Origin: an uncultured Candidatus Rokubacteria bacterium
GTDB lineage: Bacteria > Methylomirabilota > Methylomirabilia > Rokubacteriales > DASRDR01
DNA: 64,000 nucleotides
Reading direction: 5' to 3'
Assembly: GCA_963805625.1 (NCBI GenBank)
Contig: CAWDVE010000016.1
Span: 64,001-128,000, forward strand
How positions within the stretch are numbered: position 1 is the stretch's first letter; each line of letters opens with the position of its first letter. The translations under genes and the position numbers were made by a program. Shown piece after piece: positions 2,267 to 14,048 of the stretch. The notes beneath the pieces were generated by a model. It did not search any database and was not told the origin of the DNA. It saw nothing but the letters and a program-made list of their open reading frames with translations.

Positions 2267-3513
2267 GAGCGGGGGTCCCTGCCGAGGAACTCGAGGGCGC
2301 TCAGCGCGTGGACGCGGACCGTGTCGAGGAAGTCGACCACGGTGACGTGCTCGTCGGCCTGGCCCATCCCGTACGGCGTCGGCCCGAAGACCGCCACCGG
2401 GATGCCGACCCGCCGGAAGACGCGGGAGTCGGTGCCGGGGCTGGAGATGTTGAAGAACGGCGCCTCGCCGCGCACCCGCGTGACCGCCTGCCGGACGACC
2501 TGCATGAACGGCAGGTCGGGCGAGGTCCAGTTCGGCTCGCTCAGGTGGAGGATCTCGTACCGCATGCCGTGATGCTGCCGCACGACGCGGCCGACGTGGC
2601 GGAGGACGTCGCCGCTCGTCGCGCCGGGGGGCAGCCGGATGTCCACCTCGGCCTCGCAGTGGTCGGCGACCAGGTTCACCTTCGTCCCGCCCCGGATCAC
2701 GCCGACGTTGACGGTCAGGGAGGCGAGGGTGTCGCTGGCGCCGGGTCCGAGGAGGGCGTCGGTGGCCGCCCGCGCCTCGTCGATGCGCTGGGTGACCTCC
2801 CGCGGCACCGGCCACGCCACCGCCTCCAGCTCCCGGAGGTCCTGGAGGGCGGCCGCGATCGCCGCGATGGCGTTCCAGCCCGCGTGGGGATACGCGCCGT
2901 GCGCGCTCTGGCCGCGGCCGACCAGGCGCACCCACACCATGCCGCGCTCGCCGAAGCGCACCGTGCGCGGGGTGCTCGGCTCGCCGATGAGCGCCGCGTC
3001 CCCTCGGAGTCGCGGGTGCTGGTCGACGAGATAGTTCGCGCCCCACGGCCCCATGGTCTCCTCATCGGCCACGGCCGCCAGGGTGACGCGCCCGCTCCAC
3101 GCTGAGCGCCGCTCGCCCAGCAGGCAGAAGGCGGCGATCGAGGCCACCACGCCCGCCTTCATGTCGGAGACGCCCCGGCCGAAGATCCTGCCGTCGCTGA
3201 TCTCCCCTCCGTAGGGGTCGCGCGTCCACTCGGCGGCGCCGGTGACCGGGAAGGTGTCGAGGTGACCGTTCAGAATCAGGTGGCGGCCGGGACCGTTGTC
3301 GAGCGTCGCTAGGACGTTCGGCATGGTCTCCTGGCCCGAGATCACCTCGGCTCGATGTCCGCGGCGGCGGAGCTGCCCGGCGACGTAGTCGGCGGCCTCG
3401 CGGGTGTCGCCCGGCGGGTTTGGGCTGGGCTGCCGGACGAGTTCCGTGACAAGCTCGAGCCACTCGTCCTGCCGCGCGTCCACCGCCTTTAGGATTTCCT
3501 CGCCCGTCTCCAT
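2263..3513 (-). CDS. M20 family metallopeptidase (ArgE/DapE-like deacylase)
   Basis: Motifs LNGHLDT, GRGVSDMKAG, ADEE, IGEP, AHGAYP. GGAGG RBS before METGEE. Confidence 0.9.
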   Translation of the reverse strand: METGEEILKAVDARQDEWLELVTELVRQPSPNPPGDTREAADYVAGQLRRRGHRAEVISGQETMPNVLATLDNGPGRHLILNGHLDTFPVTGAAEWTRDPYGGEISDGRIFGRGVSDMKAGVVASIAAFCLLGERRSAWSGRVTLAAVADEETMGPWGANYLVDQHPRLRGDAALIGEPSTPRTVRFGERGMVWVRLVGRGQSAHGAYPHAGWNAIAAIAAALQDLRELEAVAWPVPREVTQRIDEARAATDALLGPGASDTLASLTVNVGVIRGGTKVNLVADHCEAEVDIRLPPGATSGDVLRHVGRVVRQHHGMRYEILHLSEPNWTSPDLPFMQVVRQAVTRVRGEAPFFNISSPGTDSRVFRRVGIPVAVFGPTPYGMGQADEHVTVVDFLDTVRVHALSALEFLGRDPRS

Positions 3514-3599
3514 GCGCCTCCTCCTTGGTGAATGGGTCTGCCAACGGGCCATTCGAGCCAGGCCACCACAGTAGGGCAGTCCCGGAGCCGCGATCAACG

Positions 3600-3930
3600 T
3601 CCCGAGTTGATGCCGCCGGCTCGGCGCTCAGCCGATGGGGGGTGGCAGATCGTGGCGCCACCGTCCACCACGAGGGTGGTCCCGGTGATCCAGTAAGCCT
3701 CGTCGGAGGCGAGGAAGGACGGACGCGGCGCCGAGAACGCCTACCCGGAAGATGCGCGTGGACTGTTGTGCATCGGCTTCGGCGCGGGCAACGCCCAGAG
3801 CATGGTCCAAAAGAAAGCCCGGCGACCAATCACTGATGATCTCGTGCGCCCGCGCGAGGACCGCCGGCGGGATGGTAAGGCCAAGGGCTTTGGCGGTCTT
3901 GAGGTTCAACACGAGCTGGTACTAGGTGAG
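3600..3930 (-). pseudogene. Mosaic of gene remnants: ABC substrate-binding (PF04392-like) C-terminus, an N-terminal piece of the same family, and an SDR C-terminus
   Basis: T*YQLVLNLKTAKALGLTIPPAVLARAHEII, then EADAQQSTRIFRVGVLG, then FLASDEAYWITGTTLVVDGG. No intact frame joins them. Confidence 0.7.
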
Positions 3931-4317
3931 CCTCAGCCGCCGCCTCACCGCCGTGTGGTCTCGCTTCCCAAGCGTAAGCCGGCTGCCCGGGTCAGTGCCG
4001 ACTGGGTGCCAAGCTTCTCCTCATCATGGTCCGGCCCTCGCCTATGCCCTATGCGTCTGCGCGGTGGGCGAACCGCGCCTGCCACGTGGACGTGCGGCCG
4101 ATCGTGGCGACGCATCGCGACGTGCGTGCGTGCGGCTATGGGCGAGGGCCGCTTCCAGGAGGACCATTACTGCCGGCTGTGGCGTGACGTGCTAACACCG
4201 TCCCGCCGCTCCGGCCGGGCTCGACGACTTGACCCTCCTCGTGGAGCGCGTGCGCCGCAGGTGCCGAGCAGCGGTGACTGAAGATCATTGGCCACAAAGG
4301 CCAGCGCTCATCCGCGC

Positions 4318-4346
4318 TTGACCCATGCGTGCTAAGTAGTTAATCT
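4318..4346 (+). promoter_or_regulatory. Sigma70-type promoter for the tRNA-Asp 5'-half
   Basis: TTGACC-17 nt-TAATCT, ending 9 nt before the tRNA-like sequence. Confidence 0.75.
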
Positions 4347-4354
4347 ACAAAGCG

Positions 4355-4397
4355 CGGGGTCGTGGTGCAGCCTGGTTAGCACACTGGCCTGTCAAGC
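4355..4397 (+). repeat. 43-bp direct repeat equal to the 5' half of tRNA-Asp(GTC). Putative att site or truncated tRNA
   Basis: Identical to 13970-14012. Identity stops 2 nt after the anticodon loop. Confidence 0.95.
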
Positions 4398-4412
4398 AGG
4401 CGAGCGAAATAG

Positions 4413-4454
4413 AACCCCTCGGTAAGTCGCGGACTTGCCGAGGGGTTTTTCTTT
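4413..4454 (+). terminator. Intrinsic terminator
   Basis: AACCCCTCGGTAAGTC-gcg-GACTTGCCGAGGGGTT followed by TTTCTTT. Confidence 0.85.
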
Positions 4455-4751
4455 GGGTGCTTGGTTGGCGGGGGGTGGTTCTGGGCCTGGCGAGGACGGT
4501 CGCGGGCATAGTTTCGGGCATGGCGATCGGGCAGCCGGAACTCGGTGTACACGGCGCCGCGGAGCCTCTGGGGTCGGCCGCTCGCGACCTACTCACCGTG
4601 ATCGAGAGCGCCGACACCTGAGCGCTTCCAGGCCTGGGGTGGCGCCCTACCGCCGTCAGCATGTCGCCCCCGGCGGCCGACGGCGCGATCATGTCGCTCG
4701 ACTGTTGGCGACGCTGGCAGGTTCAGCGGGCACAGGGGTTCGATCAGCCGG

Positions 4752-5288
4752 CTATTGGAAGTACGCCTCCAGCCAGAGCGCGAAGGTCTGGTCGTGGCGG
4801 GCGAGGTCCCCGATGATGATCGGTCGCAGTTCCGTCTCGTAGCGCTCGCGCAGGAGGGCCGGGTCGAGCGGAACGGCGCGGGCCAGGCGGGCGACATCCT
4901 CGCGGTCGATCGGGCTGTCGCGGGCGAGCTTCGAAAGCGCCAAGTCGTGCGCCTCGAGGGTCCAGAGTGCGAGACGTGGGAACCGGCCGGGCCAGAGGGG
5001 GGTGAGCCGCTCCTCGTACCGATCAGGCAGACTCGCGACGGTCACGTGCTGGAGATGGAGCCCGTGGGCGCGGGCCAACGCGCTGTCCGGGCCGGCGAGC
5101 TCCTGGAGGCGCGCGCCGTGCCTCGCGGGGATCACCTCAAGGTAGTCGAGATCGGCCGTCGGGCGCGGGAGGCCGTAGCGCATCGCGACGACGAACCCAC
5201 CAAGACAGTGGAGCGCCACAGCCTCCGGCAGGGCGGTGTCGAGCGCGGCCAGGAATTCGCCCCACGGGGACGGCGGCTCAGCCGCGAT
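4752..5288 (-). CDS. Nucleotidyltransferase (DUF6036/AbiEii-like), putative toxin
   Basis: LGGF...RPTADLD NTase motif and DLALSKLAR...DREDV. The frame stays open upstream of the GTG at 5219 (PWGEFLAALD). True start uncertain, possibly ATC at 5288. Confidence 0.75.
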   Translation of the reverse strand: MAAEPPSPWGEFLAALDTALPEAVALHCLGGFVVAMRYGLPRPTADLDYLEVIPARHGARLQELAGPDSALARAHGLHLQHVTVASLPDRYEERLTPLWPGRFPRLALWTLEAHDLALSKLARDSPIDREDVARLARAVPLDPALLRERYETELRPIIIGDLARHDQTFALWLEAYFQ

Positions 5289-5955
5289 GGCGCAGCGCCT
5301 CCGCCGTCCAGTGGGTCAGGAGATTCCAGTGGCGCGCGGCGGCCGACCGGTGCGTACCGAGCCAGCGCCGCTCGGCCTCCGGGAGCGCGGCGCGGCCCAA
5401 GGTGTCCTCGTACACCAGCCGGCTCCGGTCGAGGGCGGCCTCGAGCGCGCGGAGGGCCGCGAGGCGTGGCCCGTCGCCCTCCCGCTCGGCCACCTCGCGG
5501 GCGAGGCTTGCGACGAAGCCGAGGCGGTTCTGGAGGTCGTGCACCTTGGCCTCGCGCACGAGCCACGCCGGGTCGAGGTGCCAGTAGCGCAGGAGCAGCC
5601 AGGGCAGGGCCTCGACCGTGCGCGCCTCGAGCTCGGGCTGGGCGAGGGCGGTGAGCAGCACCGCGCCGGGATGCTTCGCCGCGGTGCGCCGCGCGAGGTG
5701 AGCGAACCCCGGGTAGTCGAGGGCCGCGAGATCCTGGGCGAGCGTGTCGGCGGTGACCCGCGGTGTCACCCCGGCCGCGGGTAGGACCGTCGGCGGTAGA
5801 CCGTAGACGCGCATCGCCCGCCGCGCCAGGGCGGGCGTGAGGGGCCGCTGCCCCGCCTCGAGCATCGCGAGGTAGGGCTGGGACACGCCGAGCCGGGCGG
5901 CGGCGCGGGCCTGGGTCCAACCCCGGGACTGACGGGCGGTTCGCAATGGGTGCAT
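5278..5955 (-). CDS. XRE-family HTH protein, putative antitoxin/regulator
   Basis: LRTARQSRGWTQARAAARLGVSQPYLAMLEAG HTH. Overlaps the NTase gene. Confidence 0.85.
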   Translation of the reverse strand: MHPLRTARQSRGWTQARAAARLGVSQPYLAMLEAGQRPLTPALARRAMRVYGLPPTVLPAAGVTPRVTADTLAQDLAALDYPGFAHLARRTAAKHPGAVLLTALAQPELEARTVEALPWLLLRYWHLDPAWLVREAKVHDLQNRLGFVASLAREVAEREGDGPRLAALRALEAALDRSRLVYEDTLGRAALPEAERRWLGTHRSAAARHWNLLTHWTAEALRHRG

Positions 5956-5964
5956 TGCGGCTCT

Positions 5965-5987
5965 TAGCTTATCACAGACTCTGTAAT
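5965..5987 (-). promoter_or_regulatory. Extended -10 promoter overlapped by a palindromic operator
   Basis: Minus strand TGaTAAGCT 10 nt before the ATG, with an adjacent ACAGA-n-TCTGT palindrome. Confidence 0.55.
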
Positions 5988-6045
5988 GCTCATGCGAGCG
6001 ACCCTGCCATGAGCCTGCCTGGTTCGGGGACACGGACCCTGCAGC

Positions 6046-6320
6046 CTAGCAGCGCCCGGGCGGCCGTCAGGTCCGGCGTCTCGAATCCCTCGGTGAACCA
6101 GCCGTACACGCCGGCCACCAGGTCGCGCGCTTCCCCGGTACGCTCCTGAGCCTGCCAGCGGCGGGCGAGGCTCAGCGCGACGCGCAGCTCGAACGACTTC
6201 GCGCGCTGCTCGCGGGCGATCTCGAGCCCGCGGCGCATGCTGGCCTCCGCCGCCTGCACGTCGCAGCCAAGCGCGGCGAGCAGCTCGCCGCGCAGGCAGT
6301 GCAGGAGGGCGTCGACCTCA
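6046..6320 (-). pseudogene. C-terminal TPR remnant of an adenylate cyclase/AAA-ATPase type protein
   Basis: AREQRAKSFELRVALSLARRW...YGWFTEGFETPDLTAARALL. Rest of the gene absent. Confidence 0.8.
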
Positions 6321-6382
6321 AGGGCAATACGTTGGAACTCCGCGGGAGCGATGAGGATGCACTGCGGCACACCCCGGCGAGG

Positions 6383-6606
6383 TGCACTGTTTTCTGTGCA
6401 CCCTGCCCTGATTTGTGTGCACTCCCCCCACGGTCGCCGCTCCGCGCATCGGCGCGCCGATGATCTCGGCGGATTCAGGCCCGAGGAATGTCGTCGTGCC
6501 GCGATCTTGGCGCGCGCCGTCCTCCTCAGGGCGGTCCGTGGAACCCAGGGTGCCCACGTCCGCGATCCGCGCCAGCTCGCGCACGAGGTGCACTGATTTG
6601 TGTGCA
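6383..6606. promoter_or_regulatory. Three palindromic enhancer-like sites TGCAC-N8-GTGCA
   Basis: Sites at 6383-6400, 6404-6421 (one mismatch) and 6589-6606. The first two are 21 bp apart. Resemble NtrC-type bEBP sites. Confidence 0.65.
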
Positions 6607-6670
6607 GTCACATCGCCGCGGCGACTGACTCCACGCGGCAAGTGCCCGTCACGACATGCGTGGGCCGATT

Positions 6671-6685
6671 TGGCGTGCCGCTTGC
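6671..6685 (+). promoter_or_regulatory. Sigma54 (-24/-12) promoter
   Basis: TGGCGTG-CCGC-TTGC with correct GG-N10-GC spacing, upstream of the three-gene operon. Confidence 0.7.
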
Positions 6686-6836
6686 GAGTCATCGCAGGCC
6701 GATTCCGGGAACTGGGGCCGCCCCTCAACGCTCCGGGGGGCCGAGACGAGGTGTCTCGGTCTCCCGTCCGCCGCGAAGGGAAGCCGGCCCCGTCGGCCGG
6801 GACCACCGTCCACACGACCGTCTGGGAGGGATCGCG

Positions 6837-8171
6837 ATGTCCGAGGCCGACAGACCAACTGCCGCTGTGGCGCGTCGACGGCCGGTCAGCCGCGAGGGCA
6901 AGGGGTGGGCGATGTCTGCACGGGCTCTCCGGTGCGCCGCGATAGCCGGCGGCCTGTCCGTCTTCGGAAGTTCCTGGGCACAAGGCTTTGACGTGCTGAT
7001 CTCCCGGAACTATGTTCGTGCGAAGGGAGAGCCCGTGGCGGTCACGGACTCGTTCACCGTCTGCGACACGGCCGGTCAATTCACGCTGGCCGTCGAGAAC
7101 GGCCCGGGCGGCGAGCCGCGCGTGAGCAGTGGCACGGTCCTGGTCAACGGTCTCGAGGTCATCCGCGACGCGGACCTCGGCCAGCAAGTCGGACGCCTCG
7201 AGCGGCCGCTCTCCGGACTGTCGGCGACCAACCGGCTCGACGTGCGGTTGGGGAGCCAGCCGGGAGGCACGCTCATCATCTCGATCCTTGGCCTTCAGTC
7301 CTGCGGCGGCGTCCGAATCACCGCGCCAGCCCCGGGGAGCACCGTTCGCGAGCCGGCGATCGTGGTTGAGGGGGAGCTGTCCCCGAGCTTCGCAACGGCA
7401 CTCAGCCTGACCGTCGGCGTGACCCTCGAGGGCCGCCTGATCGAGGTGCCGGTGCCGGTCCACGTCAACGACCGGCGGTTCGCCGGCTGGGTGCCCCTGG
7501 CCCCGGGGGAGGTCCGGCTGGTCGCTCGTGCGACCGAAAGGACCGGCCGAATCACCGAGGACTCGGTCACCTTCACGGTCGTCCTCGACTCGCCGGACGA
7601 ACGGGCCAGTCCACCCGAGGTGTCGCCGACGGTCGGGTTTGCCCCGCTGACCGTCACGTTCCGGGGTTCGGCCGCGGCGGATCCGTCGGTGACGGCCCTC
7701 GACCTCGATGCGGACAGCGACGGCCGGCCCGACTTCACGTTGACCGACTTCATGCCGCCCCCCCATGAAGTACCCTATGCCTACCAGACGGAGGGTCTCT
7801 ACGTCGCGACGGCGGTCGTCCAGGATCGAGCCGGCCAGTCTCGCACCTCGCGCGTCCCGATCAACGTCATCCCCGTGCCGGACCTGCCCGGTCTCTGGGA
7901 CGCCTTCCGCGCGAGCCTCTCGCAGGGAGACGTGGACGCCGCCCTCGGATTCGTCGCGCTCGAGGCCCGGGAGCGCTACCGACGGGTCCTGGAGGACCTC
8001 CGGGCGGATCTGGCCGCCATCGCCGCCGCACTCGGCGGCGTCACGCTCCACGTCGTCACGCCGGAGTACGCGACTGCCTCGATCACCCGCGTCCGCGACG
8101 GAGTCTCCGAGGGCTTTCTCGTCCACTTCGTCCGCGACGGTGATGGCGTCTGGCGCGTCGCGAGCATGTGA
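6837..8171 (+). CDS. Secreted protein with Ig-like and PKD domains and a C-terminal NTF2-like domain
   Basis: GGGAGG RBS (alternative ATG at 6912). Signal peptide ending SSWA-Q. PKD pattern SPTVGFAPLTVTF...YQTEGLYVATAVVQD. C-terminus FVRDGDGVWRVASM. Confidence 0.8.
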   Translation: MSEADRPTAAVARRRPVSREGKGWAMSARALRCAAIAGGLSVFGSSWAQGFDVLISRNYVRAKGEPVAVTDSFTVCDTAGQFTLAVENGPGGEPRVSSGTVLVNGLEVIRDADLGQQVGRLERPLSGLSATNRLDVRLGSQPGGTLIISILGLQSCGGVRITAPAPGSTVREPAIVVEGELSPSFATALSLTVGVTLEGRLIEVPVPVHVNDRRFAGWVPLAPGEVRLVARATERTGRITEDSVTFTVVLDSPDERASPPEVSPTVGFAPLTVTFRGSAAADPSVTALDLDADSDGRPDFTLTDFMPPPHEVPYAYQTEGLYVATAVVQDRAGQSRTSRVPINVIPVPDLPGLWDAFRASLSQGDVDAALGFVALEARERYRRVLEDLRADLAAIAAALGGVTLHVVTPEYATASITRVRDGVSEGFLVHFVRDGDGVWRVASM

Positions 8172-8181
8172 GGGAGCGACC

Positions 8182-8931
8182 ATGTCGATCCACAGGGACC
8201 CGCCGCGCCGGGGGGCCCGGCCGCCGGTCCGCCTGGCGCTGTCCGTCCTCCTCGTCTTGCTTTTGCTTCTCGCGCTGAGGGGGCCGCTGGGGGCCCAGCC
8301 CGCCGAGTACTCGGCCGCCGAGATCCGCGGCCGGGTCGCCGACGCCGAGACCAAGCAGCCGCTCGACGGCGTCCACGTCGTGGCCCAGTGGATCCTCAAC
8401 ACGGGCCTCTTCATGTACAGCCGCCGAGTCACGCGGCTGCAGATCCTTGAGACGCGGACGAACGCGCAGGGTGAGTACCACCTCCCGGCGTGGGGGCCGA
8501 AGCCGCGGCCGCCCCTGTCGACGCTCGATTGGGGGTCGGACCCCATCCTGACGTTCTTCAAGCCGGGCTACCGCCCGCTCGATCGGAACAACTACAGCCC
8601 GCCGCCCGAGGACGAGGCCTCGCTTTCCCTGCGCTTCTCCCGCTGGAGCGGTCGGACGGTCGACCTCGAGCCTTTCCGCGGGAGCCCGGACGACTGGATC
8701 ACCGCATTGTCCGGGCTGCAGACACGCCTGGGATGGGCCGAACCCACCGACCATCCCGTGCCGACCATCAACGACAACTGGAAACACATGCCCGAGATGG
8801 TCGTGGCGGTCCACGAGGCGCGCCGTCTCGTGCCAGAGCGCCTCCGGCACTCCGTCCGAACCCTGGACGCATGGCGGACGTCCGAGGCCGAGCTCCACGC
8901 GCTCGTGCGGCAGAAGGGATCTTCCCCATGA
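8182..8931 (+). CDS. Exported protein with a carboxypeptidase-regulatory-like (Cna-B type) domain
   Basis: Hydrophobic signal, IRGRVADAETKQPLDGVHVVAQW, TNAQGEYHLPAW, FFKPGY. GGAG RBS. Confidence 0.8.
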   Translation: MSIHRDPPRRGARPPVRLALSVLLVLLLLLALRGPLGAQPAEYSAAEIRGRVADAETKQPLDGVHVVAQWILNTGLFMYSRRVTRLQILETRTNAQGEYHLPAWGPKPRPPLSTLDWGSDPILTFFKPGYRPLDRNNYSPPPEDEASLSLRFSRWSGRTVDLEPFRGSPDDWITALSGLQTRLGWAEPTDHPVPTINDNWKHMPEMVVAVHEARRLVPERLRHSVRTLDAWRTSEAELHALVRQKGSSP

Positions 8932-10919
8932 GACTGAAGGAAGACGGCCTGACGTGCCTGGCCGTGATCTCCCTGGTGATCCTGCTGCGAACCGCCTCGA
9001 CCGGGTATGAGCTGCAGACCGACAGGGAGCTCTCGAGTGCCGCATTCCGGATTAGTGGCATCTCATCGACCCTCGAGACCCTCTACGGAATTCGGCCGAC
9101 GGACACGTTCGTTGGTCAGCGCTCACTCCTCCGTTCGGAGCGAATGACGCCGGAGGACTGGATCGCGGAGGGCGGCCGCGACGAGGATGAACCGCTCTGG
9201 CGCGTCCTCAACCACTTCTACGACCCGTACCACGACGAGCCCCTCGGGGTCCTGGGCGGCGCCCGCGCGCCGGACTGGGCGCTCGAGGATCGCGGCGACT
9301 TCCTGACGCAGCGCCACTCGTACAAGGACGCGCGCGTCGCCTTCTACCAGGGTCTCACCGCGTCAGCCCCGGGCAGTCGCGAGCACGCATGGGCCCACAC
9401 GTTCTACGCGCTGGGGCACGTCATCCACCTGGTCCAGGACATGGCCCAGCCCCAGCACGTGCGGAACGACGCCCACTTCTTCGTCGCGCCGGCCAAGAGC
9501 TGGATGGAGGCCTATGTCGACGACAACAGACTCCGGTTCGTCCTCACGGGTGCGGCGCTCCCGGCGGTGACTCGCGTCCGGGACCTCTGGGCGAGCGGCG
9601 GCGGCGCCGGGCTCGCGGAGCTCGCCAACGCCCACTTCGTGTCGGCCGGGACCAACTTCACGGCCCTCCGGACGGGGGCGACGGCCGAGCGCTTCCCCAG
9701 CCCGATCCTGGATCTGGCCGACACCAGCGCCCCCGGACCGGCCGACACCTGCAAGGACGGGACGCCCGCCCCCGGGGACGCCCAGCAGCCGCTGACGTTC
9801 TACGGCAACACCTTCGCCGATCCCGCCAGTGGCGCAACGCTGCGGAACGCGCGGATGACGACCCATTCGATCTTCGACCAGTACCTCCACGCGCGCGGGC
9901 TGGCCCCCATCTTCGCGCTGAACTGCTTCAACCTGGACGCCGCTGCGGACCTCCTCTTGCCGCGCGCCGTCGCCTACTCGGCCGCGCTCTTGCGCCACTT
10001 CTTCCGCGGCGATCTGGAGGTACGCACCGAGGCCGGTTCCGAGGGGTACGTCCTGCGCGTCACGAATCGCACGCCGGGCGAGGCGCTGAGCGGCGCCCTT
10101 ACCCTCCACTACGAGTCGTCCGACGGGACCCGCAAGCTCTGGCACCGCTGGGAGGCGCTGACCCTCGTGCCCGACCAGACGAGCGACCCCCTGCTCCTGC
10201 CCACCCCGCCACCGGATCAGGCCGAGCCGGGCCGCTACCTCCTCGTCTTCCGCGGCCAGCTCGGCGAGGAGCCCGGTGCGGTCGTGGCGCGCTGGATCGG
10301 CGTCGGCGTCTACTTCGTCGAGCTCTGGTACGACGACTACTATCGCCAGTACGACACCTCCTATCCGGCCGAGGGCGGCATCGTGGATTTCGTCCCCGTC
10401 CCGCTCCTGCCCTGGTGGGACAACGCGCTCTCCGTCACCGCGTACGCCTCCCACACCATGTGGCGCTTCTACTGCTGCGACGACGCGTATCACGGCGGCG
10501 GGGGCGAATCGCACGCCGCCGACGTAACCGACGTGCTCACGCCTCCCGGTCTCCTTCCCGGGAGCGCGGCCACCCTCCGCTTCCACGGCCGCTGCTACGG
10601 CGGCGGCGGGATCGAGCCGGTCGTGGCCGACCTGGTCGCGCTCGAGCTCCCGCGCGACCTCGCCGCGCTCGAGGCGCTCACCTGGTCCACGCAGCCTGCG
10701 GTGGCGAGGGTGCTCCACCGGGTCAGCAGCCTCGCCTGGGACTGGTCCGGCGCCGAGACGGCGACCGTCGACCTCGGCGGCGCGACCTTCCTCGGGCTCC
10801 GGTTGGTCAGCGTGCCGGTGGCGACCCCGCCCCCACCACCCACTCCGTTTCCGCCCTTCACGACCAGCTCCGCCGAGTGCCGGATGGACATGCGCATTCA
10901 GCCCCAGCCCCCGTCCTGA
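8928..10919 (+). CDS. Secreted Zn-dependent phospholipase C/S1-P1 nuclease-like protein with a C-terminal extension
   Basis: ATGA overlap, signal peptide, and metal-ligand patterns NHFYDP, LGHVIHLVQDMAQPQHVRNDAH, MEAY. Confidence 0.7.
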   Translation: MRLKEDGLTCLAVISLVILLRTASTGYELQTDRELSSAAFRISGISSTLETLYGIRPTDTFVGQRSLLRSERMTPEDWIAEGGRDEDEPLWRVLNHFYDPYHDEPLGVLGGARAPDWALEDRGDFLTQRHSYKDARVAFYQGLTASAPGSREHAWAHTFYALGHVIHLVQDMAQPQHVRNDAHFFVAPAKSWMEAYVDDNRLRFVLTGAALPAVTRVRDLWASGGGAGLAELANAHFVSAGTNFTALRTGATAERFPSPILDLADTSAPGPADTCKDGTPAPGDAQQPLTFYGNTFADPASGATLRNARMTTHSIFDQYLHARGLAPIFALNCFNLDAAADLLLPRAVAYSAALLRHFFRGDLEVRTEAGSEGYVLRVTNRTPGEALSGALTLHYESSDGTRKLWHRWEALTLVPDQTSDPLLLPTPPPDQAEPGRYLLVFRGQLGEEPGAVVARWIGVGVYFVELWYDDYYRQYDTSYPAEGGIVDFVPVPLLPWWDNALSVTAYASHTMWRFYCCDDAYHGGGGESHAADVTDVLTPPGLLPGSAATLRFHGRCYGGGGIEPVVADLVALELPRDLAALEALTWSTQPAVARVLHRVSSLAWDWSGAETATVDLGGATFLGLRLVSVPVATPPPPPTPFPPFTTSSAECRMDMRIQPQPPS

Positions 10920-10986: not shown

Positions 10987-11350
10987 TCAGCCGCGTTCTT
11001 TTGGCGACTCCATCGTGCGATCGAGGAGGCGGTGCCAGAACGTCGGGACGTCGACGCCGGGGGCGCCCTCCACCGTGCCCAGGCTCAGGAGATCGTGGTC
11101 GGCGGTGACGAGCCATTCCGCCGCCCCGGCGACGGCGCACTCCAGGAACTTGTCGTCGTCGGGGTCTCGGCTCCCCCGGATTCGCCTGGATGGCGTCACG
11201 AGCGTCGCTCGCCGGCGGAGCAGGGCCATCAGGGCGCGTGCCTCAAGGACGGTGATCTGAAGCTTGCGGAGCACCTCCGGCCGCCGCAGGACGGCGTCGA
11301 CCTCGGCGAGGATCGGTTCCGACGCAAGCAGAGTGAACCGGCCGTCGACG
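10987..11350 (-). pseudogene. PIN-domain toxin (TIGR00305-like), N-terminally truncated
   Basis: SEPILAEV...RDPDDDKFLECAVAGAAEWLVTADHDLL. The N-terminal DTN motif is missing. Confidence 0.8.
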
Positions 11351-11501
11351 GTGCCCACGAAGCCCGTCCCGGCGAGCAGGCAGCCCGTCCGGCTCTCGAC
11401 GTTCGGCCGGGGCAACTCGCTGGCTGGCTCGACGATGTGCGCTCTGTCAACGGGTGCTGATGCCCGCGCCGGTGAAGCTCCTCTTCGTGGAGGGCTAAAT
11501 T

Positions 11502-13803
11502 CAGGGCTCCTGACATGAGCCTCGCATGAGGTCAATTTTCCTGGGCTCCCGTGAGACGATGCGTAATAATACGTGCATCCTCTCAATGGGAGGTGACCGA
11601 TGCCGACCCAGTTGCACCTGCCGGTCCAACCCGCTGGGGCTCGGGAGATCAATGCTGTGGTCGCGATGGTCGAGCGGGACGAGCAGGTCGCGTACTTCGC
11701 CTCGGGCGTGCCGCTGTTCATCCATCGGGCCGATGACCCCGTCGGGCGCCGCGTGGCGGCCGGCCAGATGATCGCGTTGGGCCTGGCGCGGCAAGACGAA
11801 CTCAGTGCGGTGCTGCACGTCAATCGCACCACGCTCTACCGGCAGCAGCGCCGGCTCCAGGCCCACGGGGTGCTGGGCGTGGTCGACGGCCAGCGCGGGC
11901 CGCGCGGCCCGCATCGGTTCACCGCCGAGAAGCGCCAGCGCGTGGCGGCGTTGCTCGAGGCCGGGCGGTCGATCCGGCGCGCCGCGGAACAGGTCGGCGT
12001 GACCGAAGGCACGATTCGCCATGCGTTGCGCCGGGGCGAGCTGCGAGGGGCGCCGCCACCCGCCGCGCCCTGTACTGGGACCGCGGACGCGGAGCGAGCG
12101 GGCTGTGCGGGCCGCTGGCGGCGTGGCCGTCCAGCGCCACACCGAGCGCGCCCTGGCCCGGCTGGGCCAGTTGACGGAAGCGGCACCGCGCTTCGTCGCG
12201 GCCGAGGCGGTGCGCTCTGGCGGGGTCATGCTGGCCCTGCCGGCCGTGCTCACGCTCGGGCTGCTGGACGCGGGGCAGCAGGTCTACGGGGCCTTGAAGC
12301 ACGGCTTCTATGGGCTGCAGGCCACGCTGCTGTGCTTGACCTTCATGGCGCTGCTGCGGATTCGGACCCCCGAGCAACTGCAGGGGCAGCCCCCCGGGGA
12401 ATTGGGCGATCCTGCTCGGCCTCGACCGGGCGCCCGAGGTCAAGACCTTGCGGCGCAAGCTCGGGGAGTTGGCGGCCCGCCGGCAGGCCACGCCGTTCAG
12501 TCAGCGGCTGGCCGAGCGCTGGGTCCGCGACCAGGCGGACGCTGTCGGGCTCCTCTACGTCGACGGCCATGTGCGGCCCTATCACGGGACCACCCATACG
12601 CTGCCGGAGACATACGTGACGCGTCGCCGCCTTTGCATGCCGGCGACGACCGACCTCTGGGTTCAGCAGCAGGATGCCCAGCCGCTGTTCGTGGTGACGG
12701 CGCCGGCCAACGACGATCTCCTGGCGATGCTGCGCACGCAGATCCTGCCCGAGGTCCGCCGCCTGGTGGGCGAGCGCCGCGTGACCGTCTGCTTCGATCG
12801 CGAGGGCTGGAGTCCGAAGTTCTTCCGCGAGTGCCACCCGCAAGGCTTTGACGTCCTCACCTATCGGAAAGGCCCCTACGCCGCCTGGCGCCGCGCGCGC
12901 CTTCCGGCCGATCACGGCGACCGTGGACGGGCGCGAGATCCGCTACACCCTGGCCGAGCGGAGCGTGGAGGTGCTGCCGGACTTCCGGATGCGCGAGGTG
13001 CGCCGCCTGTGCGACAACGGGCACCAGACGGCGATCCTGACCACGCGGCAGGATCTGCCCATCGCGGTCGTGGCCTATCGGATGTTCGAGCGGTGGACGC
13101 AGGAGAACTTCTTCCGGTACATGCGGCAGCACTTCGCGCTGGACGCCCTGGTGACGTACGCGGTGGAGCCGGCAGACCCCGACCGCACGATCCCGAACCC
13201 CGAGCGCAAGGCGCTGCGGAAGCAGCTGACCGAGGGCCGGACGACCCTCAAGGCTCTGGAACAGGCGCTAGGGGCACGCGGCCCGGACGAATCCCGAGGG
13301 CCGGCGGCCGACCATGCGCGGCTTCAAGATCGCGCACGGCGCCCTCGGCCAGCAGATCCGCGCCCAGGCGCACGCGTGCCGAGCGCTCCAGGCCCGGATC
13401 GCGGCGCTGCCGGAACGCGTGCCGGTCAAGGCGGTGCGTGGAGGAGGCCGAGATCGTCACGCTCGCGCCGGAGGCCAAGCACCTGACCGACACCATCAAG
13501 ATGGTCGCGTACCGGGCGGAGACGGCTCTGGTGCGATGTCTCGCGCCGCACTACGCCAAGACCGAGGATGAGGGCCGGGCGCTCATCCGTGAACTGCTGT
13601 CGTCGAGCGCGGACATCGTCCCGGAAGCTCAGCGCCTGCGGATCCGACTGCATTCCCTGGCCAACCCTCGCAGCAACCAGGCTCTGGCTCACGTCTGTGC
13701 GACACTCAACGCCCTGGAGCTTCAGTACCCAGGAACGACGCTGACCCTGGTATATGAGGCCCCAGGCGTTGCATAGATTCCTACGCCCATGTCAGGAGCC
13801 CTG
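11502..13803 (+). mobile_element. Insertion sequence, 2302 bp, DDE type (IS4/IS1634-like, family uncertain)
   Basis: 19-bp terminal IRs CAGGGCTCCTGACATG(A/G)GC at 11502-11520 and 13785-13803. 5-bp target duplication AAATT at 11497-11501 and 13804-13808. Confidence 0.92.
11600..13776 (+). pseudogene. Transposase with N-terminal HTHs, interrupted by about 5 frameshifts
   Basis: Pieces in alternating frames: HTH, LYVDGH, FDREGWS, ERWTQENFFRY. Stop lies just inside the right IR. Confidence 0.85.
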
Positions 13804-13970
13804 AAATTAGTAGGAAGAGGAGGGTCTAGCCGGGCCGACAGATGGGCGAGGCGGCGCCGCGACTTCTAGCGCACGGCCGTCCGGAATCTGGTAGAGTCGG
13901 GTGTCCCGCACGGCAGGCTTGCGTGGCGGATGGCGCGTGGGACGAGCGTAAGCGCTCGAAAAACCGCATC

Positions 13971-14048
13971 GGGGTCGTGGTGCAGCCTGGTTAGCACACT
14001 GGCCTGTCAAGCCAGAGGCCGCGGGTTCAAGTCCCGTCGACCCCGCCA
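13971..14048 (+). tRNA. tRNA-Asp (anticodon GTC)
   Basis: Full cloverleaf: acceptor GGGGTCG/CGACCCC, anticodon arm CTGGC-CTGTCAA-GCCAG, T loop TTCAAGT, encoded CCA. Confidence 0.98.

Follow-up and report, generated by a model that had tools for sequence, protein, structure and literature searches.

Among described proteins, the zinc-dependent phospholipases C (Zn-PLC; PF00882), which include PC-PLC of Bacillus cereus, PlcB of Listeria and the clostridial alpha-toxin, come closest to the enzyme considered here. According to PMC10576769, the N-terminal residue of Listeria PC-PLC binds metal, the walls of its active site include the N-terminal and D55 loops, and a propeptide holds the enzyme off and also inhibits it in trans; the choline-pocket aromatics of the B. 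cereus enzyme are Y56 and F66. Tox-HET-C, which has the same fold, occurs among the polymorphic toxins, and the available part of that survey lists Het-C without an immunity family (PMC3482391). Periplasmic Tli immunity lipoproteins are encoded beside lipid-attacking effectors of type VI secretion (T6SS) (10.1101/2023.03.28.534661), and the abstract of PMC8416519 discusses VARTIG, a hypervariable module of immunoglobulin (Ig) domains, in terms of self/non-self recognition or surface variation. Here we describe a three-gene module in a 64,000-nucleotide stretch (the window; positions 64,001 to 128,000 of contig CAWDVE010000016.1) from an uncultured Candidatus Rokubacteria bacterium. It encodes an exported adhesin-like protein (g1), an exported partner that is likely an inhibitor or immunity protein (g2), and an exported enzyme with a predicted Zn-PLC fold (g3). 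The three genes form a real and conserved system that clearly bears the marks of an arms race of the conflict type, and its proposed mechanism is likely; that it is a toxin-immunity system of inverted layout, exported by Sec and assisted by an adhesin, has, in our estimate, about an even chance.

All three genes lie on the forward strand: g1 at 6912-8171 (419 amino acids), g2 at 8182-8931 (249 amino acids) and g3 at 8928-10919 (663 amino acids). These coordinates bear out the initial annotation, which had described tight coupling through a 10-nt gap between g1 and g2 followed by an ATGA overlap between g2 and g3. It had also assigned N-terminal export signals to all three products, and hydrophobic leaders are indeed seen, with best 11-mer hydropathies of 1.96, 3.69 and 3.28 for g1, g2 and g3, respectively; leaders were judged by this measure rather than by a dedicated signal-peptide predictor, and that of g1 is weak. 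Translation of g1 may in fact begin at an in-frame ATG at 6837, which has a GGAGG site; a 94% identical relative is 444 amino acids long. None of the three proteins scores above the curated cut-off of any Pfam or NCBIfam model. Below it, weak Pfam matches link g2 to CarboxypepD_reg (PF13620, E=4e-4) and g1 to Ig/PKD domains; the named NCBIfam families matched none of the three window proteins and one of 79 family members, the latter weakly and with an unrelated family, and the PADLOC profiles of known defence systems matched none of eight proteins. The same genome holds a second copy of the module on contig C10 (locus L001; identities 48, 51 and 53%), in which g3 retains the full set of metal ligands described below. 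Contigs from RNA runs overlie g1, g2 and g3, which is not evidence of transcription.

To survey the wider distribution, we combined the best 80 of at least 469 genome matches with 78 distinct loci from the best 80 of at least 426 metagenome matches; including the second copy, this gave 159 loci (numbered with L below), among them a few near-duplicates. After 56 loci with less than 1,500 nt upstream of g3 had been set aside, 103 were scored. The co-occurrence presumed in the initial annotation holds: 88 loci carry g1 and g2 with g3, 12 carry g1 only, 3 g2 only, and not one lacks both partners. The three genes occur together in many soil and water bacteria, which record titles assign to Beta- and Gammaproteobacteria, Nitrospirae, Rokubacteria/Methylomirabilis, Acidobacteriota, Binatia, Deltaproteobacteria, Hyalangium and Gemmatimonadaceae; Ramlibacter sp. 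WS9, Steroidobacter flavus and Peristeroidobacter soli are cultured carriers. The closest named homologs among the matches listed belong to Rokubacteria/Methylomirabilota, the three protein searches having covered proteins of similar length. Distribution of the g3 family is patchy (25 of 40 relatives, 10 of 14 of the same genus), often with several copies. Across the first 81 loci, any further neighbour family is shared by a few at most.

An AlphaFold2 model of g3 (predicted local distance difference test score, pLDDT, 91.7; 101 sequences) shows three parts behind the signal (residues 1-26): a Zn-PLC-fold domain (residues 27-360; 9006-10007, forward strand), an Ig domain (361-460) and a variable beta-sandwich resembling carbohydrate-binding modules (461-663). 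In a structure search with the model, residues 27-360 scored best with B. cereus PC-PLC (1ah7; Z 16.6, root-mean-square deviation 3.8, 214 residues aligned), the alpha-toxin of C. absonum (Z 16.5) and Listeria PC-PLC (Z 15.3), followed by S1-type nucleases at Z 12.2, 12.2 and 11.7 (including S1 nuclease and SmNuc1; 5fb9 at 12.2), and the next row drops to Z 9.2. Foldseek gave E 7e-4 to 2fgn. PC-PLC chains are also the only solved family matched by the g3 family profile in the PDB (best E 1.6e-5), and no S1/P1 chains are among these matches. The modelled fold is closer to PC-PLC than to S1/P1 nucleases. The initial annotation had placed g3 in the Zn-PLC/S1-P1 fold on the basis of the motifs NHFYDP, HLVQD..QPQH and a further Glu; the model agrees with the fold, and all motifs were found, the Glu being E194.

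The predicted metal ligands of the window enzyme are Y27, (D32), D87, H96, H167, D171, H177, H183 and E194. Each of the 132 full domains from the fetched loci (132 of 132) has H32, D87, H96, H167, D171, H177, H183 and E194, and the mature protein begins with Tyr or Phe in all of them. As H167, D171 and H177 belonged to the search patterns they are partly selected; the other five positions lay outside the patterns, and a protein-search set obtained without patterns agrees (His32 in 104 of 120, with 14 gaps and 2 other residues). The window copy itself deviates at one position, overlooked by the initial annotation: its codon 32 (9021-9023, forward strand) encodes Asp where all 132 relatives have His. 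The same letters are present in a contig of run X1 that covers 8880-9183, X1 possibly being the source sample, and therefore Asp32 is probably real rather than a sequencing error; four further runs lack cover at this codon, which carries no information. Since Asp32 replaces a metal-ligand His of the family, the enzyme encoded in the window may be weakened.

That g3 might instead be an S1/P1-type nuclease, with extracellular DNA as its substrate or with an antibacterial role, is very improbable. S1 nuclease and SmNuc1 do reach Z 12.2, and the His at mature position 6 together with R92, a conserved Arg after the first Asp (120 of 132), presumably resembles the S1/P1 site. However, PC-PLC scores higher structurally and is the only solved family found by sequence profile, the S1/P1 nuclease model PF02265 matched none of 79 members, and the membrane-bound or periplasmic partners described below fit a lipid target. 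No S1/P1 genes for a residue-level comparison were found in 61 genomes. PF00882 does not match the window g3 and reaches E<=0.01 with 3 of 79 members (lowest value 5.6e-4), the Pfam Het-C models match none of 79, and in the sequence alignment the His of the PF00882 motif His-Ser-x-Tyr-Glu falls on a variable position of the g3 family. The g3 protein is a member of the Zn-PLC/S1-P1 superfamily outside every Pfam family tested. In the Atlas, residues 27-360 fall among 30 unnamed clusters, the nearest named clusters lying below 0.9. Look-alike clusters of 288-373 amino acids, one of them commonest in Minisyncoccota, are leads that suggest stand-alone versions of the enzyme domain.

A hydrophobic leader is present in 76 of 78 g3 proteins and mostly ends 4-7 residues before Tyr/Phe1, with Ala, Gly or Ser at position -1 in 75 of 78. 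As predicted from these features, the leader ends directly before Tyr/Phe1 and there is no propeptide. According to the sequence alignment, the choline-pocket aromatics are not kept, the counterparts of Y56 and F66 being non-aromatic in the g3 family profile. The same observation bears on the doubtful alternative of a toxin against eukaryotes such as protist grazers or fungi, that is, an alpha-toxin-like PLC with a binding domain, for which g2 would serve as a safety catch during export. The fold match to alpha-toxin and PC-PLC and the variable binding tails suit this idea, as does the loss of g2 in some lineages, expected if the producer's lipids are poor substrates. Against it stand the non-aromatic pocket positions and the retention of old g2 alleles (see below), which implies exposure to the enzymes of other bacteria. 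As to the tails, g3 homologs are alike from residue 27 to about 457 and diverge thereafter, and 56 tails of at least 30 amino acids form 29 unrelated groups, so that the variable C-termini that the initial annotation proposed to look for do exist. The window's own C-terminal domain (10308-10916, forward strand) may be a binding module, residues 460-662 reaching middling scores (Z 7.8 and 7.5) with two carbohydrate-binding modules; the variable tails have their matches in unnamed families or in propellers, and of 19 g3 proteins scanned at full length, 18 gave no match.

The strongest signal, which was not part of the initial annotation, is a swappable cassette that spans the g2-g3 junction. When closely related loci are compared, residues 166-249 of g2 and 27-84 of g3 are the two regions of lowest identity in most pairs. 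Along the module, the loci L040 and L126 are 99, 99, 96, 49, 39, 69, 92 and 99% identical; on the DNA level their flanks are 97-100% identical, with about 1.1 kb over the g2 tail and g3 front at 58-86%. The same dip is visible in L004/L086 and L051/L058, and L039/L110 are identical throughout without a dip. At the level of sequence, the g2 tail and the g3 front are exchanged as one cassette between near-identical loci. In the window, the cassette core would approximately cover 8677-9179 (forward strand; g2 166-249 and g3 1-84), its bounds being transferred from other loci.

Seven loci (L005, L011, L020, L055, L085, L099 and L133) contain arrays of the type g2-g3 stub-g2-g3. The stub ends before the QD..QP.H ligands in L005, L011, L020, L055 and L099 and is longer in L085 and L133. 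In L020, a block of 47-67% identity is bordered by runs of 175 and 206 nt without a difference, a pattern that is weaker in L005. As a dead stub would not be kept identical by protein-level selection, recent recombination would be the simplest cause of these near-identical blocks. Tandem paralogs of the middle gene, about which the initial annotation had asked, thus occur, with at least two g2 genes in 15 of the 159 loci; two full g3 genes are found in one locus and two g1 ends in none. Cassettes of this kind also call to mind a self/non-self recognition or surface-variation system, in which matching g2/g3 alleles would report kinship and the PLC-fold domain would process or anchor a surface component without killing. 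Allelic exchange combined with one constant enzyme family resembles allorecognition loci, VARTIG is discussed in such terms (PMC8416519, abstract), and loci without g2 would be viable. We nevertheless regard this alternative as unlikely, since the fully conserved three-metal site, the membrane proteins found in place of g2 and the orphan g2 copies are more in keeping with protection from an enzyme than with recognition alone.

The g2 protein consists of a CarboxypepD_reg-like N-terminal part and a hypervariable C-terminal part. Its hydrophobic leader is present in 70 of 71 members, and 23 have a lipobox-like motif, a pattern count with at least one false case. Among solved structures, the g2 profile found no convincing relative, and in the Atlas it reached unnamed clusters only. 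Informative in this regard are the 15 loci in which g1 is the only recognizable partner (12 with ample upstream room and 3 with short room). In seven of them, the middle slot holds a protein of 116-144 amino acids with 3-4 hydrophobic segments. These proteins are of three kinds (L047/L066/L137; L050/L151/L154; L091), none of which is related to g2. Such replacement by unrelated, putative membrane proteins fits an immunity function. In three further loci an extra exported protein is encoded between g1 and g2 (L032:5537-7186, L042:6113-7225, L078:1063-1899); by eye, their C-termini look related, one has ankyrin repeats, and they are possibly a further immunity family.

For g1, the AlphaFold2 model (pLDDT 90.6) comprises a beta-sandwich (27-128), an Ig domain (134-223), a PKD domain (241-320) and an NTF2-like domain (321-419), and profile matches are to PKD/glucodextranase Ig. 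The C-terminal domain (7872-8168, forward strand) resembles 3gzr (Z 10.0, root-mean-square deviation 2.6, 96 residues aligned), and many further NTF2-like rows appear in the structure search. Throughout the family g1 ends with this domain, the last residue being Met, Phe or Leu in 113 of 115 proteins. The last ~290 residues are constant among relatives, and the N-terminal part adds up to ~1,800 residues that form Ig/PKD stalks, beta-propellers or adhesive domains of an ice-binding-like type. We therefore predict g1 to be an adhesin-like protein with a fixed Ig-PKD-NTF2 end. Its Ig-PKD part covaries with the Ig domain of g3 (partial correlation 0.38). An outer level of exchange is seen in pairs such as L005/L085 and L115/L140, where the g2 N-terminal part and the g3 core are 70-90% alike and g1 and the g3 Ig domain ~30%.

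The architecture of g1 would also suit surface-tethered scavenging, in which g1 anchors g3 to particles or biofilm, g3 releases head groups or phosphate from phospholipids or nucleic acids of the environment, g2 acts as a chaperone in folding or export, and variability reflects substrate tuning or phage pressure. The adhesin stalks, propellers and ice-binding-like domains of g1 and the carbohydrate-binding-like tail of g3 are suited to attachment to particles, further exported proteins of the genome are encoded behind the same promoter motif, and g2 is dispensable in some loci. Yet scavenging leaves unexplained why old g2 copies are kept before dead g3 stubs, why g2 is replaced by unrelated membrane proteins and why alleles are swapped sharply between near-identical loci; in addition, the neighbourhood survey revealed no transporter or phosphatase genes recurring beside the module. 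We consider it improbable, albeit the least so of the alternatives. Of the options left by the initial annotation, the evidence, short of proof, favours an effector with an immunity protein and a scaffold over a scavenging complex.

From these observations we infer the following course for a toxin-immunity system. The g3 protein would be a zinc phosphodiesterase of PLC fold that attacks envelope lipids of neighbouring bacteria, its target being an envelope phosphodiester, most likely a phospholipid. Export by Sec and signal cleavage would free Tyr1, the counterpart of the zinc-binding Trp1 of PC-PLC, and since g3 has no propeptide it would be competent already in the producer's own periplasm. 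There, g2, as a periplasmic protein or lipoprotein, would cover the rim of the active site, formed by the first ~60 mature residues of g3, with its variable C-terminal part, thus acting as a propeptide in trans and protecting the producer's periplasm in an allele-specific manner. The fixed Ig-PKD-NTF2 end of g1 would hold g3 and tether it to targets, the variable adhesin stalk of g1 and the variable tail of g3 choosing the target surface. New specificities would arise through cassette replacement by homologous recombination in the conserved flanks, and tandem events would leave the old g2 as orphan immunity before a dead g3 stub. A broader formulation, to which we assign somewhat less than an even chance, is that the module represents an undescribed, widespread inverted polymorphic toxin: a Sec-exported three-protein weapon with the zinc phospholipase fixed at the N-terminus and kin specificity residing in a cassette that pairs the active-site rim with the tail of the upstream inhibitor, in which the independently variable g1 stalk and g3 tail choose the victim, and which would serve Rokubacteria and many other uncultured bacteria of soil and groundwater as a main weapon in kin discrimination.

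Several observations weigh against a toxin with a dedicated immunity protein. Empty middle slots are the chief evidence against an obligatory immunity gene: in L016, L044, L046, L107, L108 and L146, g1 abuts an intact g3, and L125 has a 199-nt gap in this place (in L030 there is an assembly gap). The full-length enzymes of the g1-only loci keep all ligands, also where the slot is empty, and a search of five g1-only draft genomes revealed no true g2 at any other place. In L017, a relative of L016, g2 is cut to 138 amino acids next to an intact g3, and L109 has two full g3 genes behind one g2. Covariation speaks for the toxin-immunity reading in that, among the top 100 g2-g3 column pairs, 20 fall in the block of the g2 C-terminal part and g3 27-95 (40 shuffles gave 5-17 and 40 neighbour swaps gave 6-18), but linkage alone predicts such a block signal; single pairs are barely above shuffles (top z 5.5 versus 4.5-5.15), and the partial correlation between the g2 C-terminal part and g3 27-84 (0.16) is not above that with g3 85-200 (0.18). 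The enzyme family is constant and N-terminal, unlike in described polymorphic toxins. Finally, no dedicated delivery genes recur beside the module in the neighbourhood survey and the genome was searched for a T6SS sheath gene without success, so that the toxin reading offers no route by which the enzyme would reach a target membrane. Two secretins are encoded in the genome, along with a weak GspK-like match, and by eye, type II secretion or pilus assembly genes are located near the module in L007, L022, L054 and L065. A complex prediction of g3 (27-460), g1 (132-419) and g2 (39-249) scored 0.00 and, with controls not folded, has no bearing either way.

Upstream of g1, three palindromes, to which no strand is assigned, precede a predicted sigma54 -24/-12 promoter (6671-6685, forward strand; 9 of 11 consensus positions). 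The first, TGCAC-N8-GTGCA (6383-6400, 18 nt), is likely an enhancer site of a sigma54 activator; the second, with one mismatch (6404-6421), follows 21 nt after it, as in other clusters, and the third (6589-6606) lies 82 nt before the -24 box. In the genome, TGCAC-N8-GTGCA occurs 32 times, compared with 1-13 occurrences for other spacers from 3 to 15. Thirteen palindrome clusters on contigs C4, C10, C13, C16 and C17 usually consist of a pair 21-22 nt apart and a third site. Scored against a consensus (GG-N10-GC core, 11 positions), sigma54-like sites alone are no better than chance (44 matches versus 46 expected), and support for them is therefore positional: 9 of the 13 clusters have a core (at least 7 of 11) 55-125 nt away, compared with 12% of random positions, the distance window having been picked after the data were seen, and 7 of 13 have a core of at least 9 of 11 (background for at least 8: 4%). 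The genome carries rpoN and 48 matches to the activator domain.

Among 15 regions from relatives, palindromes and a sigma54 core face g1 in L195, L198, L201 and L205; L202 has both before a decayed module, and L200 has palindromes only. In L195, L198, L200, L201 and L202 the module and a ferredoxin-kinase-regulator-activator operon are arranged divergently. The genome under study has this divergent promoter at C4:189023-189140 too, but no module follows it there, which suggests that the module moved. Two palindrome clusters adjoin sigma54-activator genes and several precede exported proteins. The palindromes and sigma54 cores probably define a regulon. The motif was found in only 3 of 73 wider loci, and for this reason sigma54 control is lineage-specific rather than a feature of the system; the sigma54-controlled module of the initial annotation accordingly stands for this lineage, with palindromes, a positioned core and conservation in relatives.

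With respect to the surroundings, the initial annotation had contrasted an intact module with decayed neighbours, and this is correct in part. A transposase gene (PF21804, within 11600-13776) is split over three frames, the match of a PIN gene (10987-11400) lacks the first 30 model positions, and 5990-6370 is a 126-amino-acid fragment with two paralogs elsewhere in the genome, assembly error being possible in each case; the XRE-HTH and DUF6036 genes, however, appear whole. The second module copy adjoins a tyrosine integrase gene and an ISAzo13-type transposase gene (L001:6449-7465 and 3050-4306). Comparison with phages gave no match and with plasmids one partial match. At 4313-4530 (forward strand) there is a ~215-nt element that occurs in six copies, 84-91% alike (the others at G000 C16:7841, 43307, 48131 and 579533, and C22:52785), and consists of a sigma70-like promoter, 43 nt corresponding to the 5' half of tRNA-Asp, a hairpin and a T-run. 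The 43-nt stretch is identical to that half of the genome's only tRNA-Asp (13970-14012), and the predicted product would be a tRNA-half-like small RNA; a comparison with Rfam gave no convincing match. Two copies adjoin a pair of XRE-HTH and DUF6036 nucleotidyltransferase genes (4752-6033). We had considered the repeat as the mark of an integrase island around the module and rejected this, as no integrase is nearby and the repeat has its own conserved flanks in all six copies.

If the proposed function is true, the module represents a toxin-immunity architecture missed by screens built on C-terminal toxin swaps, a case of a zinc phospholipase C used between bacteria, and a source of natural allele-specific protein inhibitors of the PLC fold. 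It would also provide a testable conflict trait for abundant uncultured lineages, with cultured carriers at hand. Even if the toxin reading fails, there remains a real, conserved and unannotated system that recombines in an unusual way, and the sigma54 motif marks a probable regulon of this lineage. The initial annotation knew of no characterised system of this composition, and our literature searches, mostly of open-access text, likewise found no description, with the proviso that the neighbourhood supplement of PMC3482391 could include the module. The three-gene system is apparently undescribed.

It is instructive to compare the module with its closest counterparts. With Zn-PLCs, g3 shares the helical fold (Z 15-17), the HFYDP and H-x3-D-x2-QPxH motifs, the late Glu and a free N-terminal aromatic residue, and with alpha-toxin also a C-terminal binding domain. 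It differs in having no propeptide, a His at mature position 6, core insertions, an invariant His in RNDxH in place of the non-conserved His before S-x-Y-E, no choline-pocket aromatics, and an Ig domain with a variable tail; moreover, the module has two obligate-looking partner genes, and PF00882 recognizes only the 3 of 79 members noted above. A three-gene arrangement with a secreted Zn-PLC is also that of the plcB-PA0027-PA0028 operon of P. aeruginosa, where the partners are a folding helper and a lipoprotein. The T6SS Tle/Tli pairs (10.1101/2023.03.28.534661) likewise combine a lipid-attacking enzyme with an adjacent periplasmic or lipoprotein partner, and g2 often has a lipobox-like motif; in contrast, g3 has its own Sec-type leader and another fold, VgrG/PAAR neighbours are missing from the first 81 loci, and the genome yielded no T6SS sheath gene. 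The umbrella toxin particles of Streptomyces (PMC11062931) are secreted multi-protein antibacterial complexes with diversified binding domains too, but are built from unrelated proteins on a repeat scaffold that is absent here, and belong to Actinobacteria, whereas the module resides in diderm lineages. S8-PTS (PMC9424270) and VARTIG (PMC8416519) are three-component or Ig-rich hypervariable secreted modules; the former differs by its peptidase, C-terminal toxin domains and Gram-positive hosts, and the latter is archaeal, its abstract naming no enzyme. The polymorphic toxin systems of Zhang et al. 2012 (PMC3482391) share with the module the signal peptide, recombining cassettes, putative immunity genes alongside, orphan pairs and a patchy spread. 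They swap unrelated C-terminal toxin domains, whereas here one enzyme family keeps its N-terminal place, the partner gene is upstream, and swapping is confined to the g3 front and the g2 tail. Recombining cassettes with orphan toxin fragments are thus found, and interchangeable C-terminal toxin domains are missing. For the latter reason we do not file the module as a member of this class, yet it would work like a polymorphic toxin-immunity locus.

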